Assembly (NCBI GenBank): GCA_965247685.1
Contig: OZ252021.1
Location: 1,201-65,200, forward strand
Length of the DNA stretch: 64,000 nt
Direction of reading: 5' to 3'
DNA from: Bdellovibrionales bacterium
GTDB taxonomy: Bacteria > Bdellovibrionota > Bdellovibrionia > Bdellovibrionales > UBA1609
The position numbers were made by a program, and so were the translations under genes. The notes under the pieces are model-generated. The model saw nothing but the letters and a program-made list of their open reading frames with translations. It searched no databases and was not told the DNA's origin. Below are positions 28,386-58,847 of this stretch, piece by piece; position 1 is the stretch's first letter, and every line of letters starts with the position of its first letter.

Positions 28386-28389
28386 GAAA

Positions 28390-30282: not shown

Positions 30283-31647
30283 TTAGATACGGATAGAAAT
30301 ATCCATAAAAGCTAAATGATCGATTTTGTTCTCATCTGAGGCAGAGATTTCTTTACCTCGCATTGTATATTTAAGCCCCAATGCAACACCATCGCTTAAG
30401 AAATACTTTAGAGCTAAGCGATGCCCTGAATATCCTGTGCCACCAATATCATAATCCACATAGTTGCTGAAGGCGACATCTGTGGGCAATCTAAAGTAAT
30501 GATAACTGGCATTGAATTGCTGGTTTTGTTGATGTCCAAAAACTCCACCAACAACAAATCCTAAAGTTTCTAAGGATGCGCTATTGATATAACCCGATCC
30601 AAAATTTTGAATCAAATTCAAAGATAAAGAAAGAGGAGTGCTTAATTCCACACCTTTGAATCTAAGATTCTTAATGTCCATTCTTACAAGCAGATCCAAT
30701 ACAGAATAATTATATTTGTAACTTTGTTGTTTTGTTTTTGCAGATTCCAATACACTGTTGGTTGTATATGTACTCGAAACAAACATATCTTTTGTAGGCA
30801 TACTATAGTAAACAGCGTTGAAACCAAAATCGTAATCTGTATTCTGCATCAACAAATTTGTAGATAAAGACCACATAAACCTGTTAGACGAATTAATAAG
30901 CTTCTGAGAAGACTCAGAAAGATACTTCTTAGAATCCACTCGCTCAAAACTAGGTAATAAAGCTGCACCATAACCTGTAATCAAAGGACTAATAGCATCT
31001 ACAAAAAATCCAGATAGCTTTACATCTAGATTGTAACGATTTAAAAATTCTCTTTGATAGTGGCCATAAATACCTTCTGGAGAGATATGCTCATCCCATA
31101 GGATACTGTAGTTTTTTTTATCGTACAAAGGAGAAGTTGAAAACTTCCCGACATTCAACATAAATCTGTCGTTAAAGGCATAAGATGCAGATACCCCTTG
31201 GAGCCATATTGGTTTGCCATTAACTCCCCCAATGAAGCTTTTCGGATCACTGAAAGAAATACTGCCATATTCTGCAGAATACCAGCCCCCAGAAGCTAAT
31301 TCAACATTCATACTCAGTTTAGAATTCACATGGTAAGATCCTCCTGCTACAAACTTCACTTGAAAAAGAGGAGAGAAGAATTCATCACCATAAATTTGAA
31401 TATAACGAAAGTTCAGATCACTAAAAAACCCTGAAGAGTCACTGTCTAATGAGGAATAAAGATGTTTAGAGGAGGCTAATTCTCTGGATTGTTGGGGTTG
31501 ATAAGCCGTAAGCAAATGAGAATTGAATTTTTTAGAGCCTGAATCTGAATAAGCCAACAACAGATTGGAATCTAAAATTGCTGATCCGTTTTTGGCAGAA
31601 GCCCAAACAGATCCCAATAAAAACAAAATAGATACGAACAATTTCAT
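30283..31647 (-). CDS. Putative outer-membrane beta-barrel / porin-like protein at the head of the Glt-like block
   Basis: Signal peptide MKLFVSILFLLGSVWASA, Tyr/Ser/Asn/Gly-rich alternating strands, 454 aa. The family is not recognised. A GltH/NfsH-like role is only a guess. Confidence 0.55.
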   Translation of the reverse strand: MKLFVSILFLLGSVWASAKNGSAILDSNLLLAYSDSGSKKFNSHLLTAYQPQQSRELASSKHLYSSLDSDSSGFFSDLNFRYIQIYGDEFFSPLFQVKFVAGGSYHVNSKLSMNVELASGGWYSAEYGSISFSDPKSFIGGVNGKPIWLQGVSASYAFNDRFMLNVGKFSTSPLYDKKNYSILWDEHISPEGIYGHYQREFLNRYNLDVKLSGFFVDAISPLITGYGAALLPSFERVDSKKYLSESSQKLINSSNRFMWSLSTNLLMQNTDYDFGFNAVYYSMPTKDMFVSSTYTTNSVLESAKTKQQSYKYNYSVLDLLVRMDIKNLRFKGVELSTPLSLSLNLIQNFGSGYINSASLETLGFVVGGVFGHQQNQQFNASYHYFRLPTDVAFSNYVDYDIGGTGYSGHRLALKYFLSDGVALGLKYTMRGKEISASDENKIDHLAFMDISIRI

Positions 31648-43031: not shown

Positions 43032-44018
43032 TTAATCCCAGTAATCGCTCCAATTATTGAAATTTTTTAAATCATCGAATGTTGCAGTTTTTGCAGCTGC
43101 AATACAGAATGTAGATTCAGGTTGATCACGATAACCTTCTTTTAAAAGATAGTAGCCAACCCCCCTTTGCCTTCTTAAAGAAGTGCAAGAGACACTTAAT
43201 TGTTTAAAGTAAATCCAAGAGAGGCAGATTTTATAAGAACGATCTCTGGATTTATTTGTAACACTGGCATTACGACAAATATCTGAAACCATTTCATGAA
43301 AATGCTCTAAAAGAGGACTGTCTTTGTCTCCAATAAGCAACAAAGGAGAATATATAGGGATATCGACCATACCTTTTATAACACGTCTATCATTGTCTGC
43401 TAAACCTAGTCCAGGATCAGCTACAGGATCTTTCTCTTGAGAAAACAAGTTATAAAGAATATCTGTAGATCTTGAAAAGTCCGCAAGAGAAGTTCCTATA
43501 GATGAAGGGTTGCTAAAAGTCCAGATCAAAACCGCTTCAGCATCATTACTATCATATCCGTAAGGATTTCCATATTCATCCGTGGCATCATCATTATCAT
43601 CATCGTCATCTTCATTTGCTTGAGAAGCTAAATAGTCTCCTGTAATCACTCGATTCCAAGACCGCAAACCTACTTCTGCAAAAAGATCAAAATCTCGGCT
43701 GCTGATATCGCTCTCTAATTTTTTTGCTGTTGGATTTTTTAGAATATCAAAAGCATCCTCAATAAGGCCAATCTCCCCTAAAGAGAATTTGTAGCAAGTT
43801 CTTCTTTCATCGGTGTATTCCAGCATTCGATCACAAATATTTTCACAGCGAGAAGAATCCTCGCATACATTTTGACGGGAAGTTCTTCGAGAGCTCCGAT
43901 TCCGTCTTAGATCTTCCACTTCTCCTTGAGATCCTTGAATCGAAGCCAGATAACTATATTCAGCCGGCGTACAAGAGGCGATTCCAATCAAAAAAGCAAA
44001 TGATAATATTATTTTCAT
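43032..44018 (-). CDS. Acidic Cys-motif lipoprotein, family member 2 (uncharacterised)
   Basis: I placed the start at ATG 44018 (AGAGGA ribosome-binding site, 19 nt after the upstream stop). This gives MKIILSFAFLIGIASC, a good lipobox. The motif is CEDSSRCENICDRMLEYTDERRTCY, and there is a DDDDDNDD run. Confidence 0.75.
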   Translation of the reverse strand: MKIILSFAFLIGIASCTPAEYSYLASIQGSQGEVEDLRRNRSSRRTSRQNVCEDSSRCENICDRMLEYTDERRTCYKFSLGEIGLIEDAFDILKNPTAKKLESDISSRDFDLFAEVGLRSWNRVITGDYLASQANEDDDDDNDDATDEYGNPYGYDSNDAEAVLIWTFSNPSSIGTSLADFSRSTDILYNLFSQEKDPVADPGLGLADNDRRVIKGMVDIPIYSPLLLIGDKDSPLLEHFHEMVSDICRNASVTNKSRDRSYKICLSWIYFKQLSVSCTSLRRQRGVGYYLLKEGYRDQPESTFCIAAAKTATFDDLKNFNNWSDYWD

Positions 44019-44037
44019 ATCTAAAGTTCCTCTTTTA

Positions 44038-45051
44038 TTACGGACCCGGTGGTGGACTGCAATCAGCTCTTCTTGTGTAAGTGCGCCTACCATCACTAAT
44101 GGATTCTCGATCTTCAATATGTAATATCAAACAATAAAAATCCTCAATACATCCTGAAGAATTTTCACATTCATTATTAATAAATCTATCTATGATACCA
44201 TCACTCAAACTGTCATTATCTTGGGCTTTAGAGTAAGTGTATAAGGTCACACCATCAAAAGAGTTATTAGTGAGTCCTAAAACAATAGGTAAAAGATTAT
44301 CATGACAGTCCCTTACTGAACAGGATACAGGATCCTCACAATTAATTTCCGGCTTTGATAAAGATATAAAAAGAGCATTTGTAGCCGGCTTTACATTAGA
44401 GTCACACAGTTGATTTTTAAATTTTGAAGTGGTGCAATGCTGCTGCCCTAAAAGACAAATCAAATGTCTGAAAATTTCGTCGTCTTTATCTTTAGATTGA
44501 AGAGCTTTAGCAATTTTTTCTTCTTCAGCCATCCATTCCAACACCAACTGAGCCGTCCTCGAATCATAGGAATGAATATCTTCCCAATTATCATCCCTGC
44601 GATCTCCGTCTTCATCAATATGAATGGGATCCACCAGATCTAAAAACCCTCTGTATCCTAAATTTAAAAAATCACTAAAAAATTCATCTTCAATATCATT
44701 CAGTTCAGAAAGCCGTCGAGGGTTGATCAATATATCGAAAGTACCTGCAATTTCGTCCACTCGATTTTCTCTAGCATTGTAGCAGCGATCCAAATCGCTC
44801 GCCTTTAGATAAAGGCTATCGCAAACTTCTTTGCAGTCCTCACTTTCTCGACAATAATCCGAACTATTTCTTAAGGTTCTATCACGAATACTATCTCTCA
44901 GGCGACGGCGACCATCATCGGAATCTATATTTGTGTCTTTGATAGACGATAGATAATCGTATGTCCCTCCTTGCGTGCAGGATAAAAAAAACACAATAAT
45001 AAAAAAATTGATAAAAGATATCTCTAAACTTTTCACAAAATAACACTCCAA
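44038..45051 (-). CDS. Acidic Cys-motif lipoprotein, family member 3 (uncharacterised)
   Basis: Signal/lipobox FFIIVFFLSC. The motif is CRESEDCKEVCDSLYLKASDLDRCY. It shares (T/E)Y(D/S)YL(S/A)SI and an Arg-rich stretch with member 2. Confidence 0.75.
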   Translation of the reverse strand: MECYFVKSLEISFINFFIIVFFLSCTQGGTYDYLSSIKDTNIDSDDGRRRLRDSIRDRTLRNSSDYCRESEDCKEVCDSLYLKASDLDRCYNARENRVDEIAGTFDILINPRRLSELNDIEDEFFSDFLNLGYRGFLDLVDPIHIDEDGDRRDDNWEDIHSYDSRTAQLVLEWMAEEEKIAKALQSKDKDDEIFRHLICLLGQQHCTTSKFKNQLCDSNVKPATNALFISLSKPEINCEDPVSCSVRDCHDNLLPIVLGLTNNSFDGVTLYTYSKAQDNDSLSDGIIDRFINNECENSSGCIEDFYCLILHIEDRESISDGRRTYTRRADCSPPPGP

Positions 45052-45414: not shown

Positions 45415-47469
45415 TCATGAGTCGATCAGGTTTTCCAGCTTCAGTAAAAATGTGAACTGAACAACGAGCTGTTTGAGTCGTTTAAATCTACCTGTTGTTC
45501 CACTATGCCCAGAATCCATATCCATTAAAAGAAGGATAGGATTATCATTTTTTTGAAAATCTCTCAGTCGAGCTGTCCACTTCATAGGTTCCCAATATTG
45601 CACTTGAGAGTCGTGGTATCCAGAGGTCACTAAAATATGTGGAAATTTATTCTCTCTAATATTATCGTAAGGAGAATAAGACTTCATATAATTATAATAC
45701 ACAGGATCACTCGGATCTCCCCACTCATCATACTCTCCCGCAGTGAGGGGAATATCTTGATCTTGCATAGTGGTCAAAACATCCACAAAAGGAACTTGGG
45801 CAATCATTCCATTAAAAAGATCAGGCCTCATATTGAGTACACTTCCCATTAATAAACCTCCAGCACTTCCTCCTCCTGCATAAAGTTTTTTCGGATGAAC
45901 CCACTGCTCACTCACCAAATAATGAGCACAATCAATAAAATCTTTAAAAGTATTTTTCTTTTTTAAGAGCTTCCCTTCTTCGTACCACTTTTTACCCTTC
46001 TCCGCTCCACCACGAACATGAGCCATGGCAAAAACAAAACCTCGATCCAAAAGGGAGAAAATATGCGGACTAAAATCCGGTTCTAAACTCATTCCATAAG
46101 AACCATAACCATAAAGATATAAAGGATTTTTACCTTGTTGAAATAAATCTTTTTTATAAATGATAGAAAGAGGAATTTTTTCTCCGTCTTGAGCCGATAC
46201 AAAAAATCTTTCTTCGTGATACAAACTGGAATCAAAAGGGACTGCCAATTTCGTTTGTTTTATTAATTTTGCCGTCTTATCCTTAATAGAATAATCGTAG
46301 ATCATTTCCGGCTGAGTCATTGATTCATAAGAAACTCGAAGAAGATCCGTTTGGTAATTCGCATTACTGTCCATTTCCATCACATGGCAGTTAGTTTGTT
46401 CAGAAAAGACTTCCACAGGCCTCACAACATGAGATTTTTTGTCTATAATCAGCACTTTTGAACAACTTTTTTCTCTGCATTCCAAAGCAATAAAATCTGA
46501 AAACACTTCAAAATCCTCAATGTATATATCTGGATCATGCGGAAACACCGTTTTCCAATGGTTCATGTCTGGTTGATGAATCGAGGTGACATCTAAGCGA
46601 TAGTTTGTACAAACATGAGAATTGGTCAAAATATAGAAGACATCTTTTCCATCAGCTAGATAGTATTTATGCCCTTTTTTTCTCTCTAAAAAGACTTTTA
46701 AAGGCTCTTCCGGATTTTGAGCAGAAAGAATTCGATATTCTGTGGTCAGGGTGCTGGAAGATTGAACATAAATAAATTCTTCAGAAAGAGACTTATAAAT
46801 ACTTACATGAAAAGTATGATCCTTTTCTTCAAAAATACATTCTTCTTTTTGAGTCTTTATATTGTAGCGATAAACTTGATGTGATCGAAGTGTTTGCGGA
46901 TCTTGTTTCGTGTAGAAAATAGTTTCATCATCTTGAGCCCAAATAACTTCTCCCGTTGTTTGAGGAATATTTTGTGATAATATTTCTTGAGTTTTTAAAT
47001 CTTTAAAAAAAATTGTATAAAACCTTCTTCCTATAGAATCTACAGAAAAAGCGGCTAAGTTTTGAGAACTTGAAAGAGCTAAGCTCCCTACCGAATAGTA
47101 CGAATGCTCTTGAGCAAGTTCATTAACATCCAGTAAAATCTCCTCTGCACTCTCCTCACTATTCTTTTTTCTCCGACAATAGATTGGATATTCTTTTTTC
47201 TCTTCATAGCGGGTTTGATACATATAATTTTTGAAAGGATAAGGTGCACTCGAATCTTTAGGAGGAATACGGCTTTTAAGCTCTTGAAATAGCTTTTCTT
47301 GAAACAAAAGAGTTTTATTCATGTGTTCGTCAAAGTATTTCTGCTCTTCTTTCAGATGATCGAGGACCTTTTGACTATCTCTTTGTTTCATCCAGAAATA
47401 CGGATCTTCTCGAACATCATCGAAAGCTCTTAGTTTTTTAATAATTTGATCTGCTTGAGGTTTTTTCAT
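45415..47469 (-). CDS. ptrB: Oligopeptidase B (S9A prolyl-oligopeptidase family)
   Basis: Catalytic Ser motif GGSAGGLLMG. The C-terminal DMDSGHSGTTGRFK matches my recollection of E. coli PtrB (MDSGHGGKSGRFK). 684 aa. Confidence 0.9.
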   Translation of the reverse strand: MKKPQADQIIKKLRAFDDVREDPYFWMKQRDSQKVLDHLKEEQKYFDEHMNKTLLFQEKLFQELKSRIPPKDSSAPYPFKNYMYQTRYEEKKEYPIYCRRKKNSEESAEEILLDVNELAQEHSYYSVGSLALSSSQNLAAFSVDSIGRRFYTIFFKDLKTQEILSQNIPQTTGEVIWAQDDETIFYTKQDPQTLRSHQVYRYNIKTQKEECIFEEKDHTFHVSIYKSLSEEFIYVQSSSTLTTEYRILSAQNPEEPLKVFLERKKGHKYYLADGKDVFYILTNSHVCTNYRLDVTSIHQPDMNHWKTVFPHDPDIYIEDFEVFSDFIALECREKSCSKVLIIDKKSHVVRPVEVFSEQTNCHVMEMDSNANYQTDLLRVSYESMTQPEMIYDYSIKDKTAKLIKQTKLAVPFDSSLYHEERFFVSAQDGEKIPLSIIYKKDLFQQGKNPLYLYGYGSYGMSLEPDFSPHIFSLLDRGFVFAMAHVRGGAEKGKKWYEEGKLLKKKNTFKDFIDCAHYLVSEQWVHPKKLYAGGGSAGGLLMGSVLNMRPDLFNGMIAQVPFVDVLTTMQDQDIPLTAGEYDEWGDPSDPVYYNYMKSYSPYDNIRENKFPHILVTSGYHDSQVQYWEPMKWTARLRDFQKNDNPILLLMDMDSGHSGTTGRFKRLKQLVVQFTFLLKLENLIDS

Positions 47470-47600
47470 AGCCCTAACTAAAGTTAAAATATAAGTAAAA
47501 GTTCTTTTTCAAAGATTTTAATGTATGTTGTTTATCAATATTTGTCCATACAATTTGAATACTCCCGCTCATGGCATTAGAATAAAGATATAAGAGGTCT

Positions 47601-48239
47601 ATGATGAAAAAAGATCATACTTTTATTGTGGGTGATGTGCATGGATGTTTTGATGAGCTCATGCTCTTGTTAAAGAAGGCACAATACCACCCCAGCCAAC
47701 ATCGTCTGATTCTTGTTGGAGATCTAGTAAATAAAGGAAAGAAGTCTTTTCAGACATTAAAATGGGCAAGAAAAAATCGTATAGAATCCGTATTAGGAAA
47801 TCATGAACTAAAATTTATTCACGGGGTTGAAAATAATCTTCCTCTCGCACCTGCCTTATCTAAGCTCAAACTAGACATGGGAGAACAACTCAGGGATTGG
47901 TTGAAGTATATTAAAGGATGGCCTCTTTTTATTGAAGAGGAGGATTTTATTGTAGTCCATGCGGGGCTTGTTCCTGGAGAACATCCAAGGGAGTCTCAGA
48001 GGGAGAGTTTAGTTAATATTCGACATTGGGATATTCAAAAACAGTCCTTATGTGATGAAGGTCGCCCTTGGCATGAATATTACACAGCTGATAAGTTAGT
48101 CGTTTACGGACACTGGGCACGACAAGGTGTTTTAAAAAAACACAATTCCATTGGACTAGACTCAGGTTGTGTTTACGGAAGAAGTCTTACAGGACTATTT
48201 TTGCCCAGTCGCACATTAATTTCAGTAGACTCTGTTTGA
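47601..48239 (+). CDS. ApaH-like metallophosphoesterase (PPP family; diadenosine tetraphosphatase or Ser/Thr phosphatase)
   Basis: GDVHGCFDEL, VGDLVNKG and GNHE motifs. The N-terminal half closely parallels E. coli ApaH, but the protein is shorter (212 aa). Confidence 0.75.
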   Translation: MMKKDHTFIVGDVHGCFDELMLLLKKAQYHPSQHRLILVGDLVNKGKKSFQTLKWARKNRIESVLGNHELKFIHGVENNLPLAPALSKLKLDMGEQLRDWLKYIKGWPLFIEEEDFIVVHAGLVPGEHPRESQRESLVNIRHWDIQKQSLCDEGRPWHEYYTADKLVVYGHWARQGVLKKHNSIGLDSGCVYGRSLTGLFLPSRTLISVDSV

Positions 48240-48294
48240 GAAATTCATATTTTTAATTTTAGTTTGTGTTAGAATGTGTCGACAGGGGTGTGTT

Positions 48295-49410
48295 ATGTTT
48301 AGACTTTACGTAACTTGTTTTCTCATTTTTGTTGGTGTTTTTGCTTCATCTAAGCCTTCAGACACCATTATGCAGAAGATCACTAAAAGTATTCACGAAG
48401 AAGACCTTTCAGCTTTACAAACTCTTTTTTCTCAAACATCTGTTAATGTCAAAGATGAGCAAACATTAAAGACACCGCTCCATTACGCCGTCATTAGTGA
48501 AAAAATTAAGATTGTAGAGTGGCTTTTGAAAAATAAAGCAATTGTGGATGCTCAAACTCGAACTCAAAAAACGCCTCTTCATTTAGCCGCTTTTAAACTC
48601 AATTATGATATTGTAAAATTATTACTCGATTATAAAGCTCAAGTCGATATTGCAGATAATAGGAAGTTTACAGCTCTTCATTATGCTTCACAAAGAAACA
48701 TTCTTAATTCCAATACGAACCCTTTAGAAGTATTAAAAATTGCAAAATTACTCGTTCAAAAGAACAAAAAAATATTAACTAAGAAGAATAGATTAGATGA
48801 AACACCTTTGCACATTGCAAGTTTTAGTGGTTATGACCTCTTAGTCTCATTCTTTTTAAAAACAGACGCTTCTCTTATTAAAGAAAAAAATAAGAATGGC
48901 CACACAGCCCTGCACCAAGCTGTTTTTGGACGGATGCAGTTTCGAAAGATTAGAAATTTGAAGAAAAGTTATCAAAAGATCATCATTGATCTGGCTCAAC
49001 ATAAATCTATTTTAAATATTCGAGATAATGGCGGAAGAACTGCTTTGCACCATGTGGCTGAAAAGGGTTTTCTTAAAATAACTCAGTCTTTACTATCTGC
49101 TAAGGCCAATCCGAATGTGCAGGATAATGATGGATGGACTCCTTTGTTTTTTGCCAGCGCAAACGCTCATGTTCCTTTAATGCAGTTACTCGTTCAAAAT
49201 GGAGCAGATGTGAACATTAAGAATAAAAAAGATATGACGGCTCTTTATTTTGCTGTGGGCTCTGGTGAGAAAAAGGCTGTGGCGTTGTTGCTTCAATCAA
49301 AGTCAACAGTATTTTTAAAAGATGCTACAGGCCGTTCTTTTTTTGACGAAGATGCCAGTAGGAAATTAAAAGGTTTACTCAATCAATTTTACGAAAAAAA
49401 GTCCAAATAA
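48295..49410 (+). CDS. Secreted ankyrin-repeat protein (about 8-9 ANK repeats)
   Basis: I placed the start at ATG 48295 (AGGGG 7 nt upstream), giving the signal peptide MFRLYVTCFLIFVGVFASS. Repeats are marked by TPLHYAV, TPLHLAA, TALHYAS, TPLHIAS, TALHQAV, TALHHVA, TPLFFAS and TALYFAV. Confidence 0.85.
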   Translation: MFRLYVTCFLIFVGVFASSKPSDTIMQKITKSIHEEDLSALQTLFSQTSVNVKDEQTLKTPLHYAVISEKIKIVEWLLKNKAIVDAQTRTQKTPLHLAAFKLNYDIVKLLLDYKAQVDIADNRKFTALHYASQRNILNSNTNPLEVLKIAKLLVQKNKKILTKKNRLDETPLHIASFSGYDLLVSFFLKTDASLIKEKNKNGHTALHQAVFGRMQFRKIRNLKKSYQKIIIDLAQHKSILNIRDNGGRTALHHVAEKGFLKITQSLLSAKANPNVQDNDGWTPLFFASANAHVPLMQLLVQNGADVNIKNKKDMTALYFAVGSGEKKAVALLLQSKSTVFLKDATGRSFFDEDASRKLKGLLNQFYEKKSK

Positions 49411-49493: not shown

Positions 49494-49693
49494 ACATAAA
49501 TCTATTTTAAATATTCGAGAGAAGAACTGCCTTGCACTATAAGGGTTTTCTTAAAATAACTCAGTCTTTCTGCTAAGGTTAATGCGAATGTGCAGGATAA
49601 TATGATGGATGGACTCCTTCGTTTTTTGCCAGCGCAAACGCGCTCATATTCGCAGTTACTCGTTCAGAATGGAGCAGAGATGTGAACATCAAA
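49494..49693 (+). pseudogene. Decayed partial duplicate of the 3' third of the ankyrin gene
   Basis: 49494-49693 aligns by eye to 48999-49220: ACATAAATCTATTTTAAATATTCGAGA is identical, and ...GGGTTTTCTTAAAATAACTCAGTCTT..., ...GAATGTGCAGGATAAT...GATGGATGGACTCC... and ...GCAGTTACTCGTTCA.AATGGAGCAGA... also match. Several indels break the frame. Confidence 0.8.
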
Positions 49694-49739: not shown

Positions 49740-52700
49740 CTACTGTTGCCTTTTGGTTTCGAAAGCTCTTTGGGCTTCACACCTTGTGTCTCCGTCATTA
49801 GGCGCACATGTTGTACACGTTCCGTTTACTGCCTTTTGATTCCAAGGACATTGACAAGTAGTTCTATTCAGTCTTCTTAGTCTTCCTCCTCTACAATTAT
49901 CTGCGCATTGCGCATGACCACTAGGATACGCTATGCTCTGGTTTGAAGGACATTCACACCTATTCCCGATCCTTTCTTGTCCTCCAGCACATCTAGCTAC
50001 ACAGTTACCATCGATCCTTTCTTGTCCTCCAGTACATCTAGCTACACACCTGTTATTCACTACTATCTGCCCTGAACCACATCTGCAAGTATAAGTACAA
50101 TTCCTGTTTTCAGCTTTCCATGTATCACATTCTTGTTGAAGAGTAGGACTAGCGTAAGGGCACTGAGCCTCTATGTTTGTACTTCTATAACGAACTCCAC
50201 ATACAGAATTGCTTGGTTCATTGCCAATCCGTCTACAGTTGACCCAACAAAACTGTGTATTTCTGGATGTACAAGAACCACAATTAAAGTCTGGATAATC
50301 ATCGTCGGGCTTTCTGCCGAAGATATTAGTACCAGGACATATGGTGCATTGTGATGGCTCTGTAGGAAGACCATCAAATATAAGACTTCCACCAGGAGTA
50401 ATAGTGCCTGGTGTTCGAACAATAGAGGTAGTCACTTCACAATTACTCGAATTACTAATGAAGTTCGTATAATTAACACTGGTACCAGGTACTTCGTCGT
50501 CATCACAAAGATCGTCGTCTCCAATATCTGGCAGATCAACAAAGACATTCTCTCTTAACGAATAAAGACTCGTAGAAATGAAAGAAGCTTTTTCATCCCA
50601 ATCCCATCGAGCATCATTTTCGGTTCTAGTCACTCCAATCTCACCTGTGACATGTAGATTTCCATTTCTGTATTTATACACTAGACTTGCTTTAGGATTG
50701 AGCTGCCCTATACTCCAACAGCGACTGTCTGAGGCACTATCAAAGCTGTACTGATATTTATCTGCTCCTGAGTCTACCGCCTGTCCACTGATAGGATCAT
50801 ACTCTTGGTTAAGTCTAATTGCGTTAACTGCATTAATACATTCTTGTTTAACAGTAGCCGCACCTTTGTTAATTAAAGTTTGAAGTGCAATTTTACGATC
50901 ATTTAAGTTTACTGCATCTTGAGACGCTCGTCTGACACTATCTGTGTGAGTAGAACAATGTTTATTTTCAAAAGCATCATGGGCTTTTAATTCGTTCACC
51001 TTATTAATAAACAGGTTTCTATTGGCTATTGCATCGTTAGTTTTTGTGAGAAGTTGTTGATAGTAATTAAAAGCTCCGCCACAAAGCTCCATATTCTTAT
51101 GGCAAATATTTCTATTTTTTCGAACCGCTTGAGTGATTTTTTTAGAATGTTTTATACCATTCAATATCAAAGCATTGCTATCAGTGGTGCTATTATAAGC
51201 TTTAACAATACACTGTCCTTTTGCACGACGCAGTTTTTCAGCTTTCCAAAGATCACAAAACTTACCTTCATTTTGTACATGATAAGATCCAGAATTATAA
51301 AACTTGAGTATGACATCAATGGAACGCATACCTTTTGCAAAACTACCCAAGTTGTATTCAGTCAACGTTTCTAAACTAGAAGTGTCCGCTTCTCCAACAT
51401 CAAAAGCGATATTATCTTTAAGTTTGTTCAACGTTTCACCACCATCCGTTTTAGAAGCAGAGCAACTGCTAGGCCAATCTTGTTCAGTTCCTCGAAGAAT
51501 TAAACTTTGATGAGTCCACAAATCTGTATTTTCTACGTTAGAAACACAAATTTTAGTCAATTTTTCATGAATGCTGTTATCACTTTTAAAAAGCGCTCTC
51601 ATCTCTTCAGCATCCATTATATGGCCAGCCTTATCTATAACACCGGATGCCGTTCCACCCGTTAAGAAAAGAGCACTAGAACTCACAGCATTCATTTGTT
51701 GATATCTGGATTGATGATTAGCCGCAAAGTTGAAAATAGAATCTGTGGCTCTCATATTTGTACCAAAAATACCCTGCCAATCTGGCACCCAATTCCAACT
51801 TTGATGATATTGCCTAGATGATGTATCGGGATTAGGCTTCAAACCAATCCATGCCGAAGCAGGAGTCTCAAGCAAACTGCCGTCAATTATAATGTGATAA
51901 TCTGAGTTTTGAGATATTGTAAAGTCAGATTGAGACGTATCTGCAAATTTGAAACTCAATTGATTTCTGGAATTATGGAATGGAACACCATCTACAAACT
52001 TAAAAGGGTTGGGGAACGAATATCGAGGCGCATTCGGAGCTACAGTTTGAAGAGCTGCCGCCCAAAGTTCTCTTGAATCTGGAGGAATGAAAAACCAATT
52101 AGATCCTAAGTTTCTACACGCTTGATGTCCAGGAGTCAGACTGGTTCCTTTAGTTTGAGATAACTTAAAAATATCTTTGATTTTGGTTGCACCCACTTTA
52201 CGGCAAAGGTAAGGAAAAGATCGAGATGTACTCGAACCAACTCCTCGAAGCCCTCTATATTGCAGATGATGAGTCAGTAAAAGAGCTTGCATGTTCGCAC
52301 TAGCCCCAGCAGTACTAATACCACTAGTTTCATCATTATTGTTGCCACCGGCATTGCGATCGGCATGAAAGTTCGAATCCGTTTTAATATAAATAGGACG
52401 AGCTGGTCTCATGCGGGATTGTATATCTCTTATTGTAACACCTGAAGGAAGTGATGCTGTAGACAAGTCAGTATATTTAATCCCTTCAAAAGGCTCTCTA
52501 TAGAAGAACGCCCAATCTCCACCTTTCATCATAGACGGCCAACCTTCGTGAAACATTCCAGAAGCATCCCTTTGAATATTCACCCAAACATGATTTTCAC
52601 TGGAAGACTCATCAAAAGAATCACCAAAGTTAGTCGCCATGTTCACACTATTTTTAAACTTGATCACTTCCACATTATTTTCCGTCTCAACAGTCAACCC

Positions 52701-54707
52701 TGCATCTTCAAGAGTTTTTCTTACAGAAGCATCCGTTGCATCAATGCTTTCTGGAGGCAGATTGTAAGCAATAGCTAAACTCGGCAACAACCCGTTTGTC
52801 CATACACCTTCCTGAGAAGGAGATCCTAATTTTTGAACTTCCGATAAAGGAGCTAAACAATTCAGTTGAGCATCCAAGCCAGAAGCTCCACCCGTTACAA
52901 TTTTAGATTTTCCATTCACAAAGCAAAGTGTTTTTTTACTTCCTGCTGTATATTCAAAATCTACACTCCTGTAGTCCGTTCCAACATCACTATTACCACA
53001 AAGAACAGGCTTAAATTCTGTAGGAGACATTCTCTTAACACATCTTCTGCTCTGGTAAATATAATAGCTACCAACCAAGGTAAAACTGTTTGTATTTTGC
53101 TCATAATCTTTATGTATAACACACTCTGGAACACTTCCATCTAAAGGTTCATCTGGAAGAGTCGCCACCTTACCAAAAGTTCCCACACCATAACGATGGC
53201 AGTTCTTCATATGACAAACTGTACATTGCATCTTCACATTATAAGGAGAGCTTCCAAAATTAATATTTTTAGAGCACTTTTTAGATCCTTTACTTGTAAT
53301 ATCATTGTATTCGACACTAATGGATGGAGAATAATAATTAGGCTGTTCACAAATGTTCTTGCATATATTTTGACTGCCATTTTTCACAGAAACATAAGAA
53401 GTCACCTCTGTTCCACCTGCTTGCAAATGCCAAAAATTGTGGTTTTTATCAAAAGTTTTTAGTCCTATTCTATCTCTTCCCACACGGCTACTCCCACTCC
53501 CATCACCATGCAAAGCTGCAACAGTCCAAGGGCCGATTCTAAAATCTAAACTATCGATATTGGTCGATTTCAAAAAGGTGTCAAGGTAAAGACCGTAAGT
53601 CATTCGAATAGAAGAATCAAAAAATTCATCATCATCAAATCGCTTCGAATCATTGGCACAACGGAAAACATTTAAGGAACAGCTCGCCGCCACATTTTGA
53701 ATTGTGTCACTTCCAAGAACCACATTCTTAGGATTTCCTGTGTTTTCTATTTGGCCTGCTTGCAAAATATTCTTACTCACATAATCCACAGATAAAGCAC
53801 TACAAATACCCGGCCCTTTAATATTTGAATGATAACAAATCTTTCCTTCCGAAGTTGAAGAACCTAAAGAACTCGTCGATAAACGAGCCAGCATATAATT
53901 TTGCGTAGATAAACTGCAGGCTCCAGGTCCACCATCACAAATATGACACTCTAAAACTTCTGAAGATAAAACAAGTTTTTCACTTTTAGAAACTGCGTAA
54001 GTGCTTTCTTGGCTGGAATCAGTTGTAATCTTGTTAGGCATAGAAATAACAGACTTCAGTTTATAAACCAAAAAACCCACTGGCACAGTGTCTGAGTTAG
54101 CTTGTTCGATTTCAGTAAAGGCAGGCATCTGTGTTGGAATCATTGTTAAACGAGCATATATATATCCCCCCGCTGATCGAGAAGCCTTCAAACATTTATT
54201 AAAATGATTTTCAGTAAAATCTCCAAAAAATCCATTCGAACCATTGGCACAATCACCTGAGCTTATCTGCCATTCTTTATTGCCAATGACTTTTAAAAAA
54301 TAGTTCCATCTTGTATCAGTAAAACCTAAAGAACTTCCGTCCAGAATTTTGCTTTTCTTTATCTCTATAGGGCAGGTAAACTCACCTTTAATATCATTAT
54401 AATTCAGTGCTGTTCCGACTAGACCGCATATTCCATACTTTTTAAAATCTTGAACCGTTCCCACACTTGAACTATCCACTTCCACTTGTATACCAATGAG
54501 CATCGATCTCATAGTCTCAAGCAGAGATTTGTGCTTGAACAAAACGTCGGATTGTTCACTATATTGAACTTGTGCCTGCTCAAAGTTACCCATATAGGTG
54601 GCAAGACCCACTGTAGATAAACCGAGTAAGGAAAATCCAAGAAGCGATCCCAATAAAGAAAAACCCTTATTCTTACTCAACATCTTAATTATTTTAGATC
54701 TAACCAT
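49740..54707 (-). CDS. Giant (1655 aa) secreted protein with a prepilin/PilX-like N-terminus and a Cys-rich repeat C-terminus; family unknown
   Basis: AGGAAG ribosome-binding site 6 nt upstream of ATG 54707. The N-terminus is MVRSKIIKMLSKNKG/FSLLGSLLGFSLLGLSTVGLATYM. The last 260 aa or so hold about 27 Cys in CxC / CxxC spacing (CRCGSGQ..., CVARCTGGQERI x2, CECPSNQ, CQCPWNQ, CTTCAPN). Confidence 0.85.
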   Translation of the reverse strand: MVRSKIIKMLSKNKGFSLLGSLLGFSLLGLSTVGLATYMGNFEQAQVQYSEQSDVLFKHKSLLETMRSMLIGIQVEVDSSSVGTVQDFKKYGICGLVGTALNYNDIKGEFTCPIEIKKSKILDGSSLGFTDTRWNYFLKVIGNKEWQISSGDCANGSNGFFGDFTENHFNKCLKASRSAGGYIYARLTMIPTQMPAFTEIEQANSDTVPVGFLVYKLKSVISMPNKITTDSSQESTYAVSKSEKLVLSSEVLECHICDGGPGACSLSTQNYMLARLSTSSLGSSTSEGKICYHSNIKGPGICSALSVDYVSKNILQAGQIENTGNPKNVVLGSDTIQNVAASCSLNVFRCANDSKRFDDDEFFDSSIRMTYGLYLDTFLKSTNIDSLDFRIGPWTVAALHGDGSGSSRVGRDRIGLKTFDKNHNFWHLQAGGTEVTSYVSVKNGSQNICKNICEQPNYYSPSISVEYNDITSKGSKKCSKNINFGSSPYNVKMQCTVCHMKNCHRYGVGTFGKVATLPDEPLDGSVPECVIHKDYEQNTNSFTLVGSYYIYQSRRCVKRMSPTEFKPVLCGNSDVGTDYRSVDFEYTAGSKKTLCFVNGKSKIVTGGASGLDAQLNCLAPLSEVQKLGSPSQEGVWTNGLLPSLAIAYNLPPESIDATDASVRKTLEDAGLTVETENNVEVIKFKNSVNMATNFGDSFDESSSENHVWVNIQRDASGMFHEGWPSMMKGGDWAFFYREPFEGIKYTDLSTASLPSGVTIRDIQSRMRPARPIYIKTDSNFHADRNAGGNNNDETSGISTAGASANMQALLLTHHLQYRGLRGVGSSTSRSFPYLCRKVGATKIKDIFKLSQTKGTSLTPGHQACRNLGSNWFFIPPDSRELWAAALQTVAPNAPRYSFPNPFKFVDGVPFHNSRNQLSFKFADTSQSDFTISQNSDYHIIIDGSLLETPASAWIGLKPNPDTSSRQYHQSWNWVPDWQGIFGTNMRATDSIFNFAANHQSRYQQMNAVSSSALFLTGGTASGVIDKAGHIMDAEEMRALFKSDNSIHEKLTKICVSNVENTDLWTHQSLILRGTEQDWPSSCSASKTDGGETLNKLKDNIAFDVGEADTSSLETLTEYNLGSFAKGMRSIDVILKFYNSGSYHVQNEGKFCDLWKAEKLRRAKGQCIVKAYNSTTDSNALILNGIKHSKKITQAVRKNRNICHKNMELCGGAFNYYQQLLTKTNDAIANRNLFINKVNELKAHDAFENKHCSTHTDSVRRASQDAVNLNDRKIALQTLINKGAATVKQECINAVNAIRLNQEYDPISGQAVDSGADKYQYSFDSASDSRCWSIGQLNPKASLVYKYRNGNLHVTGEIGVTRTENDARWDWDEKASFISTSLYSLRENVFVDLPDIGDDDLCDDDEVPGTSVNYTNFISNSSNCEVTTSIVRTPGTITPGGSLIFDGLPTEPSQCTICPGTNIFGRKPDDDYPDFNCGSCTSRNTQFCWVNCRRIGNEPSNSVCGVRYRSTNIEAQCPYASPTLQQECDTWKAENRNCTYTCRCGSGQIVVNNRCVARCTGGQERIDGNCVARCAGGQERIGNRCECPSNQSIAYPSGHAQCADNCRGGRLRRLNRTTCQCPWNQKAVNGTCTTCAPNDGDTRCEAQRAFETKRQQ
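49968..50057. repeat. 45-bp tandem duplication inside the giant gene (encodes CVARC(T/A)GGQERI...)
   Basis: 49968-50003 and 50013-50048 (GATCCTTTCTTGTCCTCCAG(C/T)ACATCTAGCTACACA) differ at one base. The period is 45 bp, so the duplication is in frame (15 aa). Confidence 0.9.
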
Positions 54708-54722
54708 TGCATCTTCCTATTT

Positions 54723-56840
54723 TTAATGTGGTGGTACAACCACAGTAGTGGTGACAGTTTTAATTGTTTGAGAAAGCACATTCGTTTGACTCTCTATAGT
54801 CACTGGCTGCATTCTATCTTCCAATCTCAGTGGATCGATCCCAGCGTATTCACAATAGGTATCAAAACCTACATATCGAACAGCCTCACCTATTCTTGGA
54901 CCATTTTCTGCAGATGTAATATCCACATATTTTCCATTTTTCAAAGCTTTACAAAAGCATCTATTCTTCTTATCCAAATTACACTTCTTGTTGATAGGAG
55001 GACAGTAAGCTGAATATTGTCTCATGCGGACTTCTTTATTATTGACCTTCTTATGAGCAATACATACATAGTCTGGTCTATCTGCTCTTCCGATCGTGTA
55101 AACAGATTGGATGGAATCCGATCCATGCACATTAAATGTTCTTGGAAAAGCAAGATCCACCACTGGAGGATCACCCACTATTCCCGTATCGCAAGTCCCG
55201 TCTTGTTCTATAGCAGAACCATCCGGACAGCACGCACCACCTACAGGCATAGCATTTCCATCAGGACAACACACTCCAGAAGGCGCAGAACCATCTGTAC
55301 ATGTGACTGCAACCGAACAAATTCCACTTGCGGGTTTAGGTGAGTTGTTTGGACATTTGCATATATTTGTATTGCTGGAATTAGCCTGTGTTTGAGCAAA
55401 CTTGTAAGAACCATTATTACATGCACACATTCCTGAACCATCTTTTGTGGAACCTGTAGGACATTGAGGACAGGAAAATGTGGAATCGGAAACATGAGCC
55501 TGCTTCGTTGGTTCATATTTACATATACATTGATCCACATTAAGTTCTGCATCTGAAGGACACGGAGAACAGTTGATTGAGGAATCTCCAAAAGCTGCAA
55601 CTATGCTTGGGTTATCAATACATTGACATCCTTCAGCGCCTTTATTCCTCGTTCCAGACACAGGACATCCTTTACAACTTAAACTCTTTAACGCAGTCAC
55701 ACTCGTGATAGAAGCAGACGGACGGTTTTGAACACTGGGGTCTGTAGAATTTTCTCTATGAAAAACACAGGCACATTGACTAGAATTGATAGGCGCCACA
55801 TTGAAGAGCACTCGCCAATTTGCATGATCTCTTGTTACAAATCGTTCGTGATTGTCCATCCACCAATTAACATTAGAAGAGTTTGCAGATTCTTTTAAAG
55901 ATGCAGCAACAAAGCTTCTAAGACCATTGTCATCCAAACTCACATCACGATCAGGATAAGGAGTACAGCAACTTTGTCCCTTTAGATTTCCTGCCTGTTT
56001 GCCAGGAAAAGCATCGCAAAGACAACTACGTTCATTGCTATCATAACTGGATCCAAAAGGACACTGAGTACAAGATAAGGAACTTCCTAACGGAGCTTGT
56101 CTGGTTGGATCATTATCACACCTACATACAACAGAACTATCTGGATTTGTATGTCGAGTTGTCTCCGGAGAGCATGCTGTTGTACTACAATTATTAGGTA
56201 AATTCCCTCCTATTGGGAAAGTGATACTCGGATCACTCGTACAACCACAGAATAAATTTTCAATTTGCTCTAGTTGCTGTTGTGAGAATTGGTATGGATT
56301 ACCCCCAAAATTACCACTTTCAGCATCTGTTCGGAGTTCACTTCCTGCTGGACATCTACTACGACAAACCGAAGGCAAAGGTTGATTTGTTGGGAATGTA
56401 ACAGTATTTCTCAAAACACACCTGCAAACTGGCTCAATGTCTGCTCCTTCGAATACAATACTTCCTGCTGGACAAGTTCTTGTAGCAGGATCTGTAGCAG
56501 GATCGAGAGTGGGATCGAGAGTGGGATCGGGACAATTCTGAGGTATATTTTCTGCTCCGTAGAAACCTACATCACCCGGACATAAACATATTTCCTGCCA
56601 TGCATTAACACTTGGACTATTACCAAAACCACTAGTCGTGGCGCGATAGAAGTTTCCTCCCGCACACTTGCCCTGTAGATGCTGATGAGCACCAGCATTA
56701 GAATCAGTATGAGCACTTGTATAAAAACTGCCGAAACAGATTACAGCCAAAATAAACCAATATTTTTTTGTACAAAAAGGTGCAAAAAAATATTTATTAA
56801 AAGTTTTCATCCAATTTATGTTATCCATATTTTCGTTCAT
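54723..56840 (-). CDS. 705-aa secreted cysteine-rich repeat protein; family unknown
   Basis: Signal-like segment WFILAVICFGSFYTSA/HT. By hand count there are 50 Cys after it, including 11 CxC pairs and 6 C-x2/4-CP pairs in a periodic module of about 33-40 aa (CP.GS...CxC...C..). The start lies 2 nt after the upstream stop. Confidence 0.85.
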   Translation of the reverse strand: MNENMDNINWMKTFNKYFFAPFCTKKYWFILAVICFGSFYTSAHTDSNAGAHQHLQGKCAGGNFYRATTSGFGNSPSVNAWQEICLCPGDVGFYGAENIPQNCPDPTLDPTLDPATDPATRTCPAGSIVFEGADIEPVCRCVLRNTVTFPTNQPLPSVCRSRCPAGSELRTDAESGNFGGNPYQFSQQQLEQIENLFCGCTSDPSITFPIGGNLPNNCSTTACSPETTRHTNPDSSVVCRCDNDPTRQAPLGSSLSCTQCPFGSSYDSNERSCLCDAFPGKQAGNLKGQSCCTPYPDRDVSLDDNGLRSFVAASLKESANSSNVNWWMDNHERFVTRDHANWRVLFNVAPINSSQCACVFHRENSTDPSVQNRPSASITSVTALKSLSCKGCPVSGTRNKGAEGCQCIDNPSIVAAFGDSSINCSPCPSDAELNVDQCICKYEPTKQAHVSDSTFSCPQCPTGSTKDGSGMCACNNGSYKFAQTQANSSNTNICKCPNNSPKPASGICSVAVTCTDGSAPSGVCCPDGNAMPVGGACCPDGSAIEQDGTCDTGIVGDPPVVDLAFPRTFNVHGSDSIQSVYTIGRADRPDYVCIAHKKVNNKEVRMRQYSAYCPPINKKCNLDKKNRCFCKALKNGKYVDITSAENGPRIGEAVRYVGFDTYCEYAGIDPLRLEDRMQPVTIESQTNVLSQTIKTVTTTVVVPPH
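56481..56528. repeat. Two adjacent 12-bp tandem doublets (TGTAGCAGGATC x2, GAGAGTGGGATC x2)
   Basis: Read directly. On the coding (minus) strand this encodes DPTLDPTLDPATDPAT (residues 105-120 of the 705-aa protein). Confidence 0.9.
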
Positions 56841-56842
56841 AC

Positions 56843-58558
56843 TTACCTACTTAATGGAAGAGTGGCTAAACTCCCAGCTCCAAAAACGTTAGAGAGAAAT
56901 CGCGGCGGAGTCGATCCTCCTCCCGGAAGAGGTCTTGTAGATGTCATACAACCTCCAAGAGAAATGGCACTTCCACTGCAACCCGGCCAATTGTTTCGTT
57001 GACACAAAGCTTGCACTGCAGTCAGCTGAGAATTTGCTAAAGCAGGGAGAGTTGCTGGTGCCGGACAAGAAAAAGGCTGCACCGACGTCCCACTGGCTCT
57101 CGCCACAACATGAGGCCCTTGAATCACACCATCACATGTTAATGTTCCACGACATACAGAACCATCTGGGCCCGTAACATCTGTTCCCAGAGTACCTATT
57201 CTTCTCTGCCTGCAAGTACAATTCATCCGCTTCACGTTCACTTCGTAATAGCTTGAATAATAACAAGGTATTAAATCTTGAATAACACGAGAACCTCCAG
57301 GACCAACAGGTCTAGGAGAACTTCCACTTGCAAACTCTCTCGCCCTTACAATATGTTGACCCAAACTAGATTTCGTATCCCTATCAAGATCTTCTCTTTT
57401 AAGAGCAATGTCAAAAAGCACTCCCGGTCCTTTATTTAATACTTTGAGTTCTTTTCGCAAAAGTTGAGTTCCCTTAGGATAATTGCCAAGAACCGCCGCA
57501 TTTTGTATCGTATTGTAGTCACTAAGACCCACACAACGAGGATATTCATTGTCGTAATGTTCGTTATAAGCCGACTCACACTTCATAGCACAAGATTCAG
57601 ACGCTATAGGTCTGATATGAAAGGTGGAAAAAGGACGGCGAACCGCCGCATTCATTACAATCTTCTGCTTCTTCACATCCTTAGATACTTGGTAAGGAAC
57701 CACCACGCTCACGAAGACCATGGAATCATCACTATCTTGCACAGGATAATAATCACAAACAGTATGAGCTCCATCTACTGTATATTGACCATTAGAATCT
57801 TTAATTTTACAAAGAACAGAAGGCATCCCCATATAACCAGCATAGTTAAGTCTCATATCCAAAGGATAATCATCATCTTCTTTTGTGGGAGGGGCGTAAG
57901 GACAAAGTCCGTCTACTTCTAATAGAGTTCTAGTGTCCCGGCAAATCACACCTTTATCCGCAATGGAAAGAGCAGCACGAACACTTGGATCATTCGCATT
58001 ACGAACAGCCCAAGTAATTTCTGCATTTTTAAAAAGTGTATGGTAATCATTTTTAAGGTCGGTATCGAGAGGATTAAAAACTAAATATGCTTTGCCTTCC
58101 ATTTGATTGTTGTAAGGGGAAGGTAAATTGACAGTTTTAAACCAAGAAGGCTTACCTGAAGGAGGTTGCCCTAATAACCCTAAACTATCATAGAAATCAT
58201 GGGCAATTTTATTGACCACTCCATTTGGATTAGAATTTCCGTCCAAATCTTCTCGAGGCAAAGGACCTATTTGATAGCATCCGCGGACCTGCTTTTTCCA
58301 TCCATCATTTTCATTTCCTATTTGAGCATTAGAGCAAATGACCACATTTTTTTGTACCATTAAAGTCGCTAAAGCAATCGATTTTTGGGCTAAGATAAAA
58401 GCCTGTTGTTGATTCAGCCCTTGTGCTGCACCACTGGCAAAGTTTTGAGCCACTTGATGAGTCGCCATAATGGTCGCAGCCACAACACCTGAAGCCATTA
58501 AAGAAAGGACTAAACTTCCTTTTTTTCCAAGCATTTTTTTTGTTCTTTTAAATATCAA
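56843..58558 (-). CDS. 571-aa secreted Cys-containing protein with a prepilin/PilX-like N-terminus; family unknown
   Basis: N-terminus (MIFKRTKK)MLGKKG/SLVLSLMASGVVAATIMATHQVAQNF. The first 70 aa or so are homologous to the N-terminus of the giant protein. The start is either TTG 58558 or ATG 58534. Confidence 0.8.
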   Translation of the reverse strand: MIFKRTKKMLGKKGSLVLSLMASGVVAATIMATHQVAQNFASGAAQGLNQQQAFILAQKSIALATLMVQKNVVICSNAQIGNENDGWKKQVRGCYQIGPLPREDLDGNSNPNGVVNKIAHDFYDSLGLLGQPPSGKPSWFKTVNLPSPYNNQMEGKAYLVFNPLDTDLKNDYHTLFKNAEITWAVRNANDPSVRAALSIADKGVICRDTRTLLEVDGLCPYAPPTKEDDDYPLDMRLNYAGYMGMPSVLCKIKDSNGQYTVDGAHTVCDYYPVQDSDDSMVFVSVVVPYQVSKDVKKQKIVMNAAVRRPFSTFHIRPIASESCAMKCESAYNEHYDNEYPRCVGLSDYNTIQNAAVLGNYPKGTQLLRKELKVLNKGPGVLFDIALKREDLDRDTKSSLGQHIVRAREFASGSSPRPVGPGGSRVIQDLIPCYYSSYYEVNVKRMNCTCRQRRIGTLGTDVTGPDGSVCRGTLTCDGVIQGPHVVARASGTSVQPFSCPAPATLPALANSQLTAVQALCQRNNWPGCSGSAISLGGCMTSTRPLPGGGSTPPRFLSNVFGAGSLATLPLSR

Positions 58559-58731
58559 AATTTTCTGCCCTGCTTTTGTTTTCTCTTTTAGTTATTTTTT
58601 ATCGAAAAATTATCTTTATAAATTTACAAACAAAATTATTAATTTAAATTTCATAAACAACCAGTAAAAAAACAAAGCAGCAATCTATATTTGAAGACAC
58701 GGAGATCTGCACAGCAATACTTTGTCCCACC

Positions 58732-58771
58732 ATTCTCCTGTAAGAGTTTTTGTATGTCAAATTGAGTGCCA
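58732..58771 (-). promoter_or_regulatory. Candidate promoter for the three-gene operon (sigma-54-like -24/-12 overlapping a sigma-70-like -35/-10)
   Basis: The minus strand reads AAAAAATGGCACTCAATTTGACATACAAAAACTCTTACAGGAGAATGG. One reading is TGGCAC-N5-TTGA (sigma-54 consensus TGGCAC-N5-TTGC). The other is TTGACA-17 nt-GAGAAT. It lies about 175-210 nt upstream of the start codon. Confidence 0.25.
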
Positions 58772-58847
58772 TTTTTTAAACTGAGGTGTGTCACATCAAT
58801 ACAATAGACTGGGATTCTTAAAAAAGTGTATCAATTCAATACAAAAT

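Follow-up and report, generated by a model that had tools for sequence, protein, structure and literature searches.

The three-gene operon

The stretch of DNA analysed here (the window) comprises 64,000 nucleotides of contig OZ252021.1 (assembly GCA_965247685.1, positions 1,201 to 65,200) from a Bdellovibrionales bacterium. Its minus strand carries an operon of three genes encoding large, cysteine-rich proteins, in the order A (56843..58558), B (54723..56840) and C (49740..54707), with gaps of 2 nt and 15 nt between them and 289 base pairs (bp) between gene A and the LD-carboxypeptidase gene 5' of the operon. The three open reading frames (ORFs), both gaps and the 289-bp upstream region had been described in an earlier account made from the letters alone (the sequence-only reading) and were confirmed. 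That account took the trio for a novel system of secreted proteins of unknown family, a candidate fibre or pilus-tip adhesin. Here we report that the trio is conserved in related genomes, that A and C are of pilin-type ancestry as judged by homology, and that the three proteins may form a tip or priming complex of a type IV filament. The operon has the following features (lengths in amino acids, aa).

56843..58558, minus strand: gene A, pilin-like, 18 Cys; 571 aa from TTG 58558 or 563 aa from ATG 58534
58445..58534, minus strand: putative class III (prepilin-type) signal of A, predicted cleavage after Gly6
54723..56840, minus strand: gene B, secreted cysteine-rich protein, 705 aa, 52 Cys (7.4%), clade-specific
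56712..56840, minus strand: putative Sec (type I) signal peptide of B, ...KKYWFILAVICFGSFYTSA^HTD; alternative start Met11 possible
55191..56711, minus strand: variable region of B, ~34-aa four-Cys units of the form CxC-x15-17-C-x2-3-C-P-x-G-S/T
56481-56529, minus strand: 12-bp tandem repeats in B, DPTLDPTLDPATDPAT
54726..55190, minus strand: conserved C-terminal domain of B, ~155 aa, with most of the invariant columns
49740..54707, minus strand: gene C, giant type IV pilin-like protein, 1655 aa, 60 Cys
54579..54707, minus strand: putative class III signal of C, predicted cleavage after Gly15
51408..54578, minus strand: conserved extracytoplasmic core of C, residues ~44-1100, ~25 invariant Cys
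49743..50387, minus strand: Cys-rich tail of C, residues 1441-1655, lineage-specific
49967-50003 and 50012-50048, minus strand: recent 45-bp duplication in the C tail, CVARCTGGQERIDGN / CVARCAGGQERIGN

The cysteine richness that first drew attention to these proteins is considerable. There are 18 Cys in A (3.2%), 52 in B (7.4%) and 60 in C (3.6%), all even counts, against a median of 0.97% in the 41 other window ORFs of at least 150 aa, and invariant Cys columns are numerous in the homologue alignments of all three. No direct assignment to a known family was obtained: searches of A, B and C against Pfam and NCBIfam gave no match at E ≤ 1 except one at chance level, and the PDB, queried with sequence profiles of A and C and with the B sequence, returned nothing meaningful.

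A and C open with a short basic leader, a Gly and about 20 hydrophobic residues. In A, the leader MLGKKG (from the TTG start: MIFKRTKKMLGKKG) is followed by the hydrophobic SLVLSLMASGVVAATIMATHQVAQ, giving the junction MLGKKG^SLVLSLMASGVVAATIMAT, where ^ marks the predicted cleavage position; the 563-aa form is the version of A in the public collection (P0018). In C, the leader MVRSKIIKMLSKNKG is followed past Gly15 by FSLLGSLLGFSLLGLSTVGLATYMGNFE, and the junction reads ...SKNKG^FSLLGSLLGFSLLGLSTVGLAT. The hydrophobic stretch right after the leader Gly is the sole transmembrane-like window in each protein. Leaders differ in length and sequence in both families, while conservation reaches 90% or more at the Gly and at residues +1/+2. 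Within the signal of A, G6 and S7 reach this level and A14, V18, A19, I22, T25 and H26 are invariant (11-12 homologues). In the C family the junction [KR][KR]G^FS and the next 28 residues are nearly invariant. The two most conserved 50-residue stretches of C are residues 1-50 (majority fraction 0.70), in keeping with a pilin, and 851-900, and its core contains the motif PPDSRELWAAALQxVAPNAPRYxFPNPF at residues 875-902.

B is built differently. Its N-terminus (K-K, a hydrophobic stretch, T-S-A), read from the sequence, fits a Sec signal peptide, in agreement with the classical signal first proposed for it; a signal-like hydrophobic segment opens every B homologue, and a KG-hydrophobic prepilin junction occurs in none of them. 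The four-Cys units differ between genomes in number and sequence. Invariant columns of a five-sequence alignment fall mostly between S579 and P703, and the C-terminal domain follows the pattern ...PPVVDLAF...SVYxxGRADRPDYxC...CPP...C...CEYAxxDPxR...TxxVxPP. Neither B nor its seven homologues has a Pfam match at E ≤ 1; the spacing of the four-Cys repeat loosely recalls eukaryotic Cys-rich repeats, with no match to a family model. A unit of ~34 aa with CxC ... CxxC(P) spacing can be seen in B as well as in the final ~115 residues of C, so that the shared spacing pointed out earlier is real as a pattern; homology was not found, the BLASTP comparison of B with the C tail being not significant (best E 0.03, single comparison). 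The tail itself (residues ~1425-1655) has an alignment occupancy of 0.12-0.29, with a comparable tail in P0003 only, and no Pfam match.

Intact A-B-C trios, in the same order, occur in seven genomes of small-genome Bdellovibrionales metagenome-assembled genomes (MAGs), in differing neighbourhoods, which answers in the affirmative whether the three-gene arrangement persists in relatives. Among the records with homologues, one is a 1.40-Mb sequence labelled chromosome and most others measure 0.37-2.07 Mb. The locus L001 is syntenic with the window, and the remaining trio loci lie in unrelated neighbourhoods. Protein lengths at the trio loci, where B alone ranges from 494 to 1159 aa, are as follows.

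Window: A 563 aa, B 705 aa, C 1655 aa
L001: A 567 aa, B 494 aa, C 1445 aa
L002: A 619 aa, B 944 aa, C 1588 aa
L005: A 615 aa, B 1036 aa, C 1528 aa
L004 = L008: A 569 aa, B 1065 aa, C 1597 aa
L006: A 570 aa, B 1159 aa, C 1516 aa
L007: A 634 aa, B 870 aa, C 1684 aa

Compared with L001, A is 60% and C 52% identical, B is alignable only over residues 402-705 (44% identity) with an unalignable N-terminal half, and uvrA, purF and the S9 peptidase are 81-83% identical. The trio evolves much faster than its neighbour genes. With Cys contents that are high, even in number and in many positions invariant, and with this fast divergence, the proteins look extracytoplasmic and exposed. Database homologues number 10 for A (its own copy excluded) and 16 for C at 29-55% identity (besides the identical copy P0001), and a word-based search found one only for B. 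The near absence of B homologues is partly explained by gene calling: at L001, gene B (8497-9981) is split into pieces of 81, 63 and 266 aa by the public call, and an intact ORF of 494 aa is present. Three trio loci also have small DUF8196 (Hjc/DUF234-like) genes in multiple copies around the trio (L006 15277-15909; L007 15445-19352; L008 1-1440 and 14841-19545), which points to a selfish or nuclease-like gene family repeated within these genomes.

Pilin-type relatives of A and C

A profile search (HMMER) with residues 1-1100 of the C family retrieved 155 cluster representatives, 125 of them at E ≤ 1e-10. They are mostly 900-1200 aa long and match the profile from position ~4 to ~600-720, often again at ~780-880. 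In the canonical members P0065, P0081, P0117 and P0132 the matches start at positions 1-6, that is, with the N-terminal segment included. A census of N-termini found the class III signal [KR]G^(F/M/L/I/Y/V)(S/T)x(I/V/L)E, with Glu at +5, in at least 47 C-family representatives, a lower bound because a simple parser missed several further members. In close relatives of the window C, Gly or Ser stands at +5. An explicit alignment shows that Gly15 of C is invariant and pairs with the cleavage Gly of KG^LSLIEV and KG^FSIIES (Bdellovibrio bacteriovorus included), and Gly20 of C occupies the Glu5 position of the canonical relatives. One of these, P0065, passes the thresholds of PF07963 (26.0 bits; cut-off 21.2) and TIGR02532 (20.2; cut-off 16.3), and aligns with positions 1-80 of the PilV model (E 2e-8, below threshold). 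Among 40 relatives scanned, PF07963 matched four and TIGR02532 two.

The gene directly 5' of every C-like gene examined (L009-L013, L015) is a homologue of A. These partner genes encode 438-527 aa, and hhalign aligned the A family with them at 99.8% probability for L011 (E 1e-28) and 93.6% for L009 (E 2e-7). In canonical loci the A-like partners are pilin-like, yet lack Glu at +5 (RG^FALLSS, RG^VGVLPL). The A and C families share no relationship past the helix (hhalign probability 0.3%). Canonical loci contain in addition a third, ordinary minor pilin of ~300-340 aa (GFSLMEV, GFTLIEV); although B takes its position in the trio, hhalign found no relationship between the two. In two circular small genomes only the A-C pair is present, and there Glu5 of C is already gone. 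One relative is found in Bdellovibrio bacteriovorus (CP169237.1), where the C homologue WP_374077923.1 bears the name 'type II secretion system protein' from the NCBI annotation pipeline (PGAP). The two clusters are true homologues: in B. bacteriovorus a C-like gene of 959 aa comes immediately after an A-like gene of 438 aa, and its product has the conserved Cys framework of the window protein. Unlike the window trio, the B. bacteriovorus cluster has a C that keeps KG^FSIIES and is ~700 aa shorter, followed by a canonical minor pilin of 337 aa, and it has no B.

Homology to canonical prepilin-motif proteins, N-terminal segment included, was found for C by hmmsearch and alignment and for A via hhalign. 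On this sequence evidence C is a giant type IV pilin-like protein by descent, and the pilin-type ancestry of A and C is established. These results back the view of the first and third proteins as prepilin-like, C belonging to a superfamily many of whose members have canonical class III signals and A being the conserved partner of C. The terms 'unknown family' and 'novel system' do not hold, as the A-C pair branches, in diverged form, from a gene set that is widespread in Bdellovibrio-type bacteria and carries the generic annotation prepilin-type or 'type II secretion system protein'. No functional study of this gene family was found in the literature. Curated prepilin models miss whole branches of such very large pilin-like proteins.

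Downstream of the canonical loci, a MauG/CCP-type di-heme enzyme is encoded after the pilin-like trio in three metagenomic relatives (L009 13931-15718; L010 5475-7262; L012 13899-15641), and in B. bacteriovorus (L015 13887-15821) a polytopic membrane protein of 644 aa occupies the place that the MauG-like enzyme has elsewhere. The cytochrome c TfcP assists PilY1 in Myxococcus, which the position of the MauG-like enzyme next to the canonical trio recalls.

A possible filament tip complex and competing explanations

By analogy with known systems, the trio could be a minor-pilin tip or priming complex carrying B as adhesin, a proposal that we judge to have about an even chance of being right. A and C would insert in the inner membrane via their class III signals, and a prepilin peptidase encoded elsewhere would cut both after the conserved Gly. 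Their N-terminal helices would then pack into the priming or tip complex of a type IV filament, either a type IVa pilus or a pseudopilus like that of the type II secretion system (T2SS). B would be exported by Sec, oxidised in the periplasm and bound to the A-C pair through its conserved C-terminal domain, which is proposed to dock onto the pilin-like proteins. Filament extension would move B outward, so that its hypervariable disulfide-locked repeats and the large globular part of C touch the host or prey surface. Peptidase cleavage, A-C helix bundling and carriage of B to the surface are all modelled on the systems compared below. Relative to the wider family, the clade seems to have enlarged C from ~1000 aa to 1440-1680 aa, lost its Glu at +5 and replaced the small third minor pilin by the non-pilin B.

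The tip-complex inference draws on parallels with minor-pilin/PilY1 complexes, modular pilins and KilLMN tip clusters. In Myxococcus xanthus, PilY1 rests on the minor pilins with its conserved C-terminal end and makes up the extreme tip with its variable N-terminal end, and the tip-most subunits PilX and GspK lack Glu5 (PMC7541494). Like FimU-PilV-PilW-PilX with PilY1 in M. xanthus and Pseudomonas aeruginosa, the trio is a class III pilin-like operon away from machine genes, and it shares with the type IVa minor-pilin/PilY1 sets a subunit without Glu5 and a large type I-signal, non-pilin partner with variable N-terminal and conserved C-terminal parts (PMC7541494). Unlike those sets, it has two pilin-like proteins instead of four, these are very large (563 and 1655 aa), neither has Glu5, and B carries Cys repeats instead of a beta-propeller. 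The PilY1 beta-propeller (PF05567 / IPR008707) was found in neither B nor its seven homologues at E ≤ 1. The layout of B is PilY1-like (type I signal, variable N-terminal part, conserved C-terminal part, minor-pilin operon), a likeness that does not imply family membership.

Modular pilins such as S. sanguinis PilB and PilC, CofB, ComZ and GspK join a pilin module to bulky modules, are predicted to sit at the filament tip, and have extra modules that domain databases often do not recognise (Raynaud et al. 2021, PMC8179133). C likewise joins an N-terminal pilin module to a bulky unrecognised part; unlike the modular pilins, it is far larger and extremely Cys-rich, lacks the motif IPR012902 used in that survey and has a dedicated pilin-like partner, A. 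The third parallel is the Kil Tad pilus of Myxococcus, whose KilL-KilM-KilN tips are encoded by stand-alone three-gene clusters with numerous predicted disulfides; one very large subunit is the extremity, and it has been proposed that target range depends on variable distal domains (Herrou et al. 2025, PMC12075869). The trio is also a stand-alone, disulfide-rich three-gene cluster with one very large subunit in predatory delta-type bacteria. It differs from KilLMN, three TadE/F/G-type Flp/Tad pilins, in that its relatives have the type IVa/T2SS-type motif [KR]G^F-S/T-x-x-E and B is no pilin; Pfam matched neither a TadE-like domain (PF07811) nor a Tad domain (PF13400) in A, B or C. The set of three pilin-like genes in the canonical loci resembles GspI-J-K or KilL-M-N.

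Several observations weigh against the tip-complex reading. At +5 there is Ser in A and Gly in C instead of Glu, which weakens their membership of the type IV pilins and does not exclude it, because PilX and GspK also lack this residue. Neither A nor C gave a direct match to PF07963 or TIGR02532 at E ≤ 1. As remarked before, no component of a pilus, T2SS, autotransporter, two-partner secretion or type I secretion system is encoded among the ORFs of the window; specifically, a prepilin peptidase, ATPase, platform protein, secretin or major pilin was found neither there nor within 10 kb of the trio in five related loci with Pfam tables. A disulfide-locked C of 1655 aa would be very bulky for passage through a secretin. 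Finally, small-genome, ankyrin-rich Bdellovibrionota MAGs from sponges (1.2-1.7 Mb) have been reported to lack type IV pilus genes, though the present lineage may differ (PMC9944714).

Run on the shallow family alignments, AlphaFold2 (AF2) placed helices at 17-34 and 40-61 ahead of beta strands in A (mean predicted local distance difference test score, pLDDT, 52). For residues 1-1190 of C (mean pLDDT 63), it placed a helix at 32-71 ahead of beta-rich domains. This helix-then-beta layout is compatible with a pilin module and is no proof of one. As further points against, the models are of low to medium confidence, and Foldseek found no pilin or other fold at E ≤ 0.001 for the model of A against the PDB or for that of C against the PDB and BFVD. 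Recurrent weak local Foldseek matches to levivirus coat proteins were taken as generic beta-sheet likeness. Sequence patterns in C (…C…G…L…PPDS..LW…AWIGL) raised the suspicion of C-type-lectin-like modules, which neither Pfam nor Foldseek bore out and which are not claimed.

If the reported absence of pilus genes holds for this clade (PMC9944714), a filament-independent explanation becomes the better one. A and C would then be pilin-derived but unpolymerised, bitopic inner-membrane proteins, forming with a periplasmic B an envelope complex for architecture or sensing. We consider this unlikely, though deserving of serious weight. Glu +5 of C is lost exactly in small-genome clades and kept in free-living-type relatives, the third canonical minor pilin is missing, and no filament genes lie near any locus examined. 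However, the leaders vary and yet [KR]G and residues +1/+2 stay conserved, which one would expect if a prepilin peptidase still recognised the site; besides, subunits at the very tip as a rule have no Glu5. B diverges rapidly and varies in length, and for such a protein an exposed ligand-binding surface is a better fit than periplasmic housekeeping; gene absence from MAGs is weak evidence. Under the filament-independent explanation, the lost Glu5 and the lost third pilin would count as signs of exaptation: an ancestral A-C tip pair, its C grown by about 700 aa and its third minor pilin replaced by B, could have become a filament-free, membrane-anchored device for host or prey contact in a probably host-associated and perhaps pilus-less clade. 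This scenario appears clearly unlikely to us; if true, it would represent a new use of pilin scaffolds.

Alternatively, the trio could be the tip of a T2SS-type pseudopilus, in which A and C are GspK-like and B is an expelled substrate or effector instead of a retained adhesin. GspK lacks Glu5, is the largest pseudopilin and has a proposed contact with substrate (PMC7541494); B, like T2SS substrates, has a Sec signal; and the PGAP name of the B. bacteriovorus homologue points the same way, though it is generic for the prepilin motif. GspK-GspI-GspJ is a heterotrimeric tip made of pilin-like proteins, of which the largest and tip-most is without Glu5, and the canonical relatives of the trio likewise have three pilin-like genes. 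The trio is unlike this pseudopilus tip in that its subunits are 3 to 10 times larger and that neither model matches nor a gsp context were found: the GspH, I, J and K models of NCBIfam and Pfam gave no match to the window proteins and weak, sub-threshold N-terminal ones in relatives only, and no gsp genes are found nearby. The strictly conserved C-terminal domain of B and its operon linkage in seven genomes fit a stable partner better than cargo, and we regard a pseudopilus tip as improbable. That the trio is no functional unit at all (chance ORFs, decaying genes or a recent mobile or toxin cassette) might be read from its slightly raised GC content (0.38-0.43 over 50001-58000 against mostly 0.35-0.37 in the surrounding window), the internal duplications and nearby decayed ankyrin fragment, and the multi-copy DUF8196 genes beside it in some relatives, but is effectively refuted by conservation. 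Seven genomes keep the three long ORFs intact and in one order (30-60% identity, Cys residues and motifs invariant), the housekeeping flanks are syntenic with L001, Pfam and NCBIfam found no toxin, phage or transposase domain, and the Foldseek likeness to toxin components was insignificant.

Of the roles first suggested, the pilus-tip adhesin is the best available reading, because C and A are homologous to a prepilin-type set and the trio is conserved in seven genomes; its pilin-type ancestry component stands, and nothing points to a separate fibre. The unusual features are the size of C (1440-1850 aa in this branch), the lost recognisable prepilin signature and the hypervariable cysteine-repeat partner, and on the tip-complex reading the trio is a strongly derived type IV filament tip module. 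Type IV pili are needed for Bdellovibrio prey entry, and to our knowledge their target-recognising tip structure has not yet been identified. The present analysis ties an unannotated operon of uncultured small-genome relatives to an uncharacterised giant pilin-like gene pair that is also present in cultured B. bacteriovorus and is a candidate for that target-recognition tip. As the pair occurs in this tractable organism, the hypothesis is testable by genetics. The window clade would represent a remodelled tip, with an enlarged main subunit, a lost Glu5 contact and a recruited, fast-evolving cysteine-repeat partner, a pattern that is expected for a module setting host or prey specificity.

Upstream region and genomic surroundings

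Features outside the three genes comprise the upstream region and an ankyrin-repeat gene with a partial copy.

58559..58847, minus strand: upstream non-coding region, holding sigma-70-like and overlapping sigma-54-like consensus matches only
58760-58732, minus strand: sigma-70-like site TTGACA-17-GAGAAT, consensus match only
58771-58758, minus strand: sigma-54-like site TGGCAC-N5-TTG, consensus match only, the sole such match in the window
48274-49410, plus strand: ankyrin-repeat gene, 378 aa, hydrophobic N-terminus
49494-49680: decayed partial copy of the 3' part of the ankyrin gene, matching 48999-49208

A sigma-54 promoter for the operon was considered on the strength of the single match upstream of A and dropped, because the motif is not kept upstream of gene A in six related loci; the pattern also occurs at least once in 17 of 100 shuffles. 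An FHA-domain sigma-54 activator is encoded in the window at 11241-12587 (plus strand).

The other genes of the window are those of an ordinary chromosome, including uvrA, purF, oligopeptidase B, gmk, spoT, tRNA synthetases, fusA and uvrB, together with a BamB-like protein, an Omp85-family protein and a TPR/ExbB/ExbD cluster. The ankyrin gene and its decayed duplicate, the 45-bp duplication in the C tail and the 12-bp repeats in B were all confirmed. The pieces of the ankyrin fragment are 89-100% identical to their source at an offset of ~470-495 bp, and the fragment occupies the spacer before the stop codon of gene C. The idea that the ankyrin neighbour provides functional context loses its footing, as it does not adjoin the trio in more distant relatives. 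The block of S9 oligopeptidase, metallophosphatase and ankyrin genes (window 45415-49410) is inverted with respect to L001 (15246-19318), and the fragment sits at one junction of this block.

Two further gene groups were observed in the window. Three apparent paralogues encode acidic proteins (5070-6137, 43032-44117 and 44038-45051, all minus strand) with lipoprotein-like N-termini (…LVISC, …IGIASC, …FFLSC), a common motif C.(D/E)S..CE.ICD…ER..CY, a Cys content of 2.5-4.7% that is high for the genome, and no Pfam match. The two beside gmk are only 27-31% identical to their L001 counterparts and so diverge even faster than the trio. A same-strand cluster at 18799-31647 (minus strand) encodes ExbD, a 158-aa ORF, MotA/ExbB, an FHA protein of 690 aa, TPR proteins of 282, 1040 and 507 aa and three ORFs without a Pfam match, and may represent a Tol/Agl-like energised envelope or gliding module.

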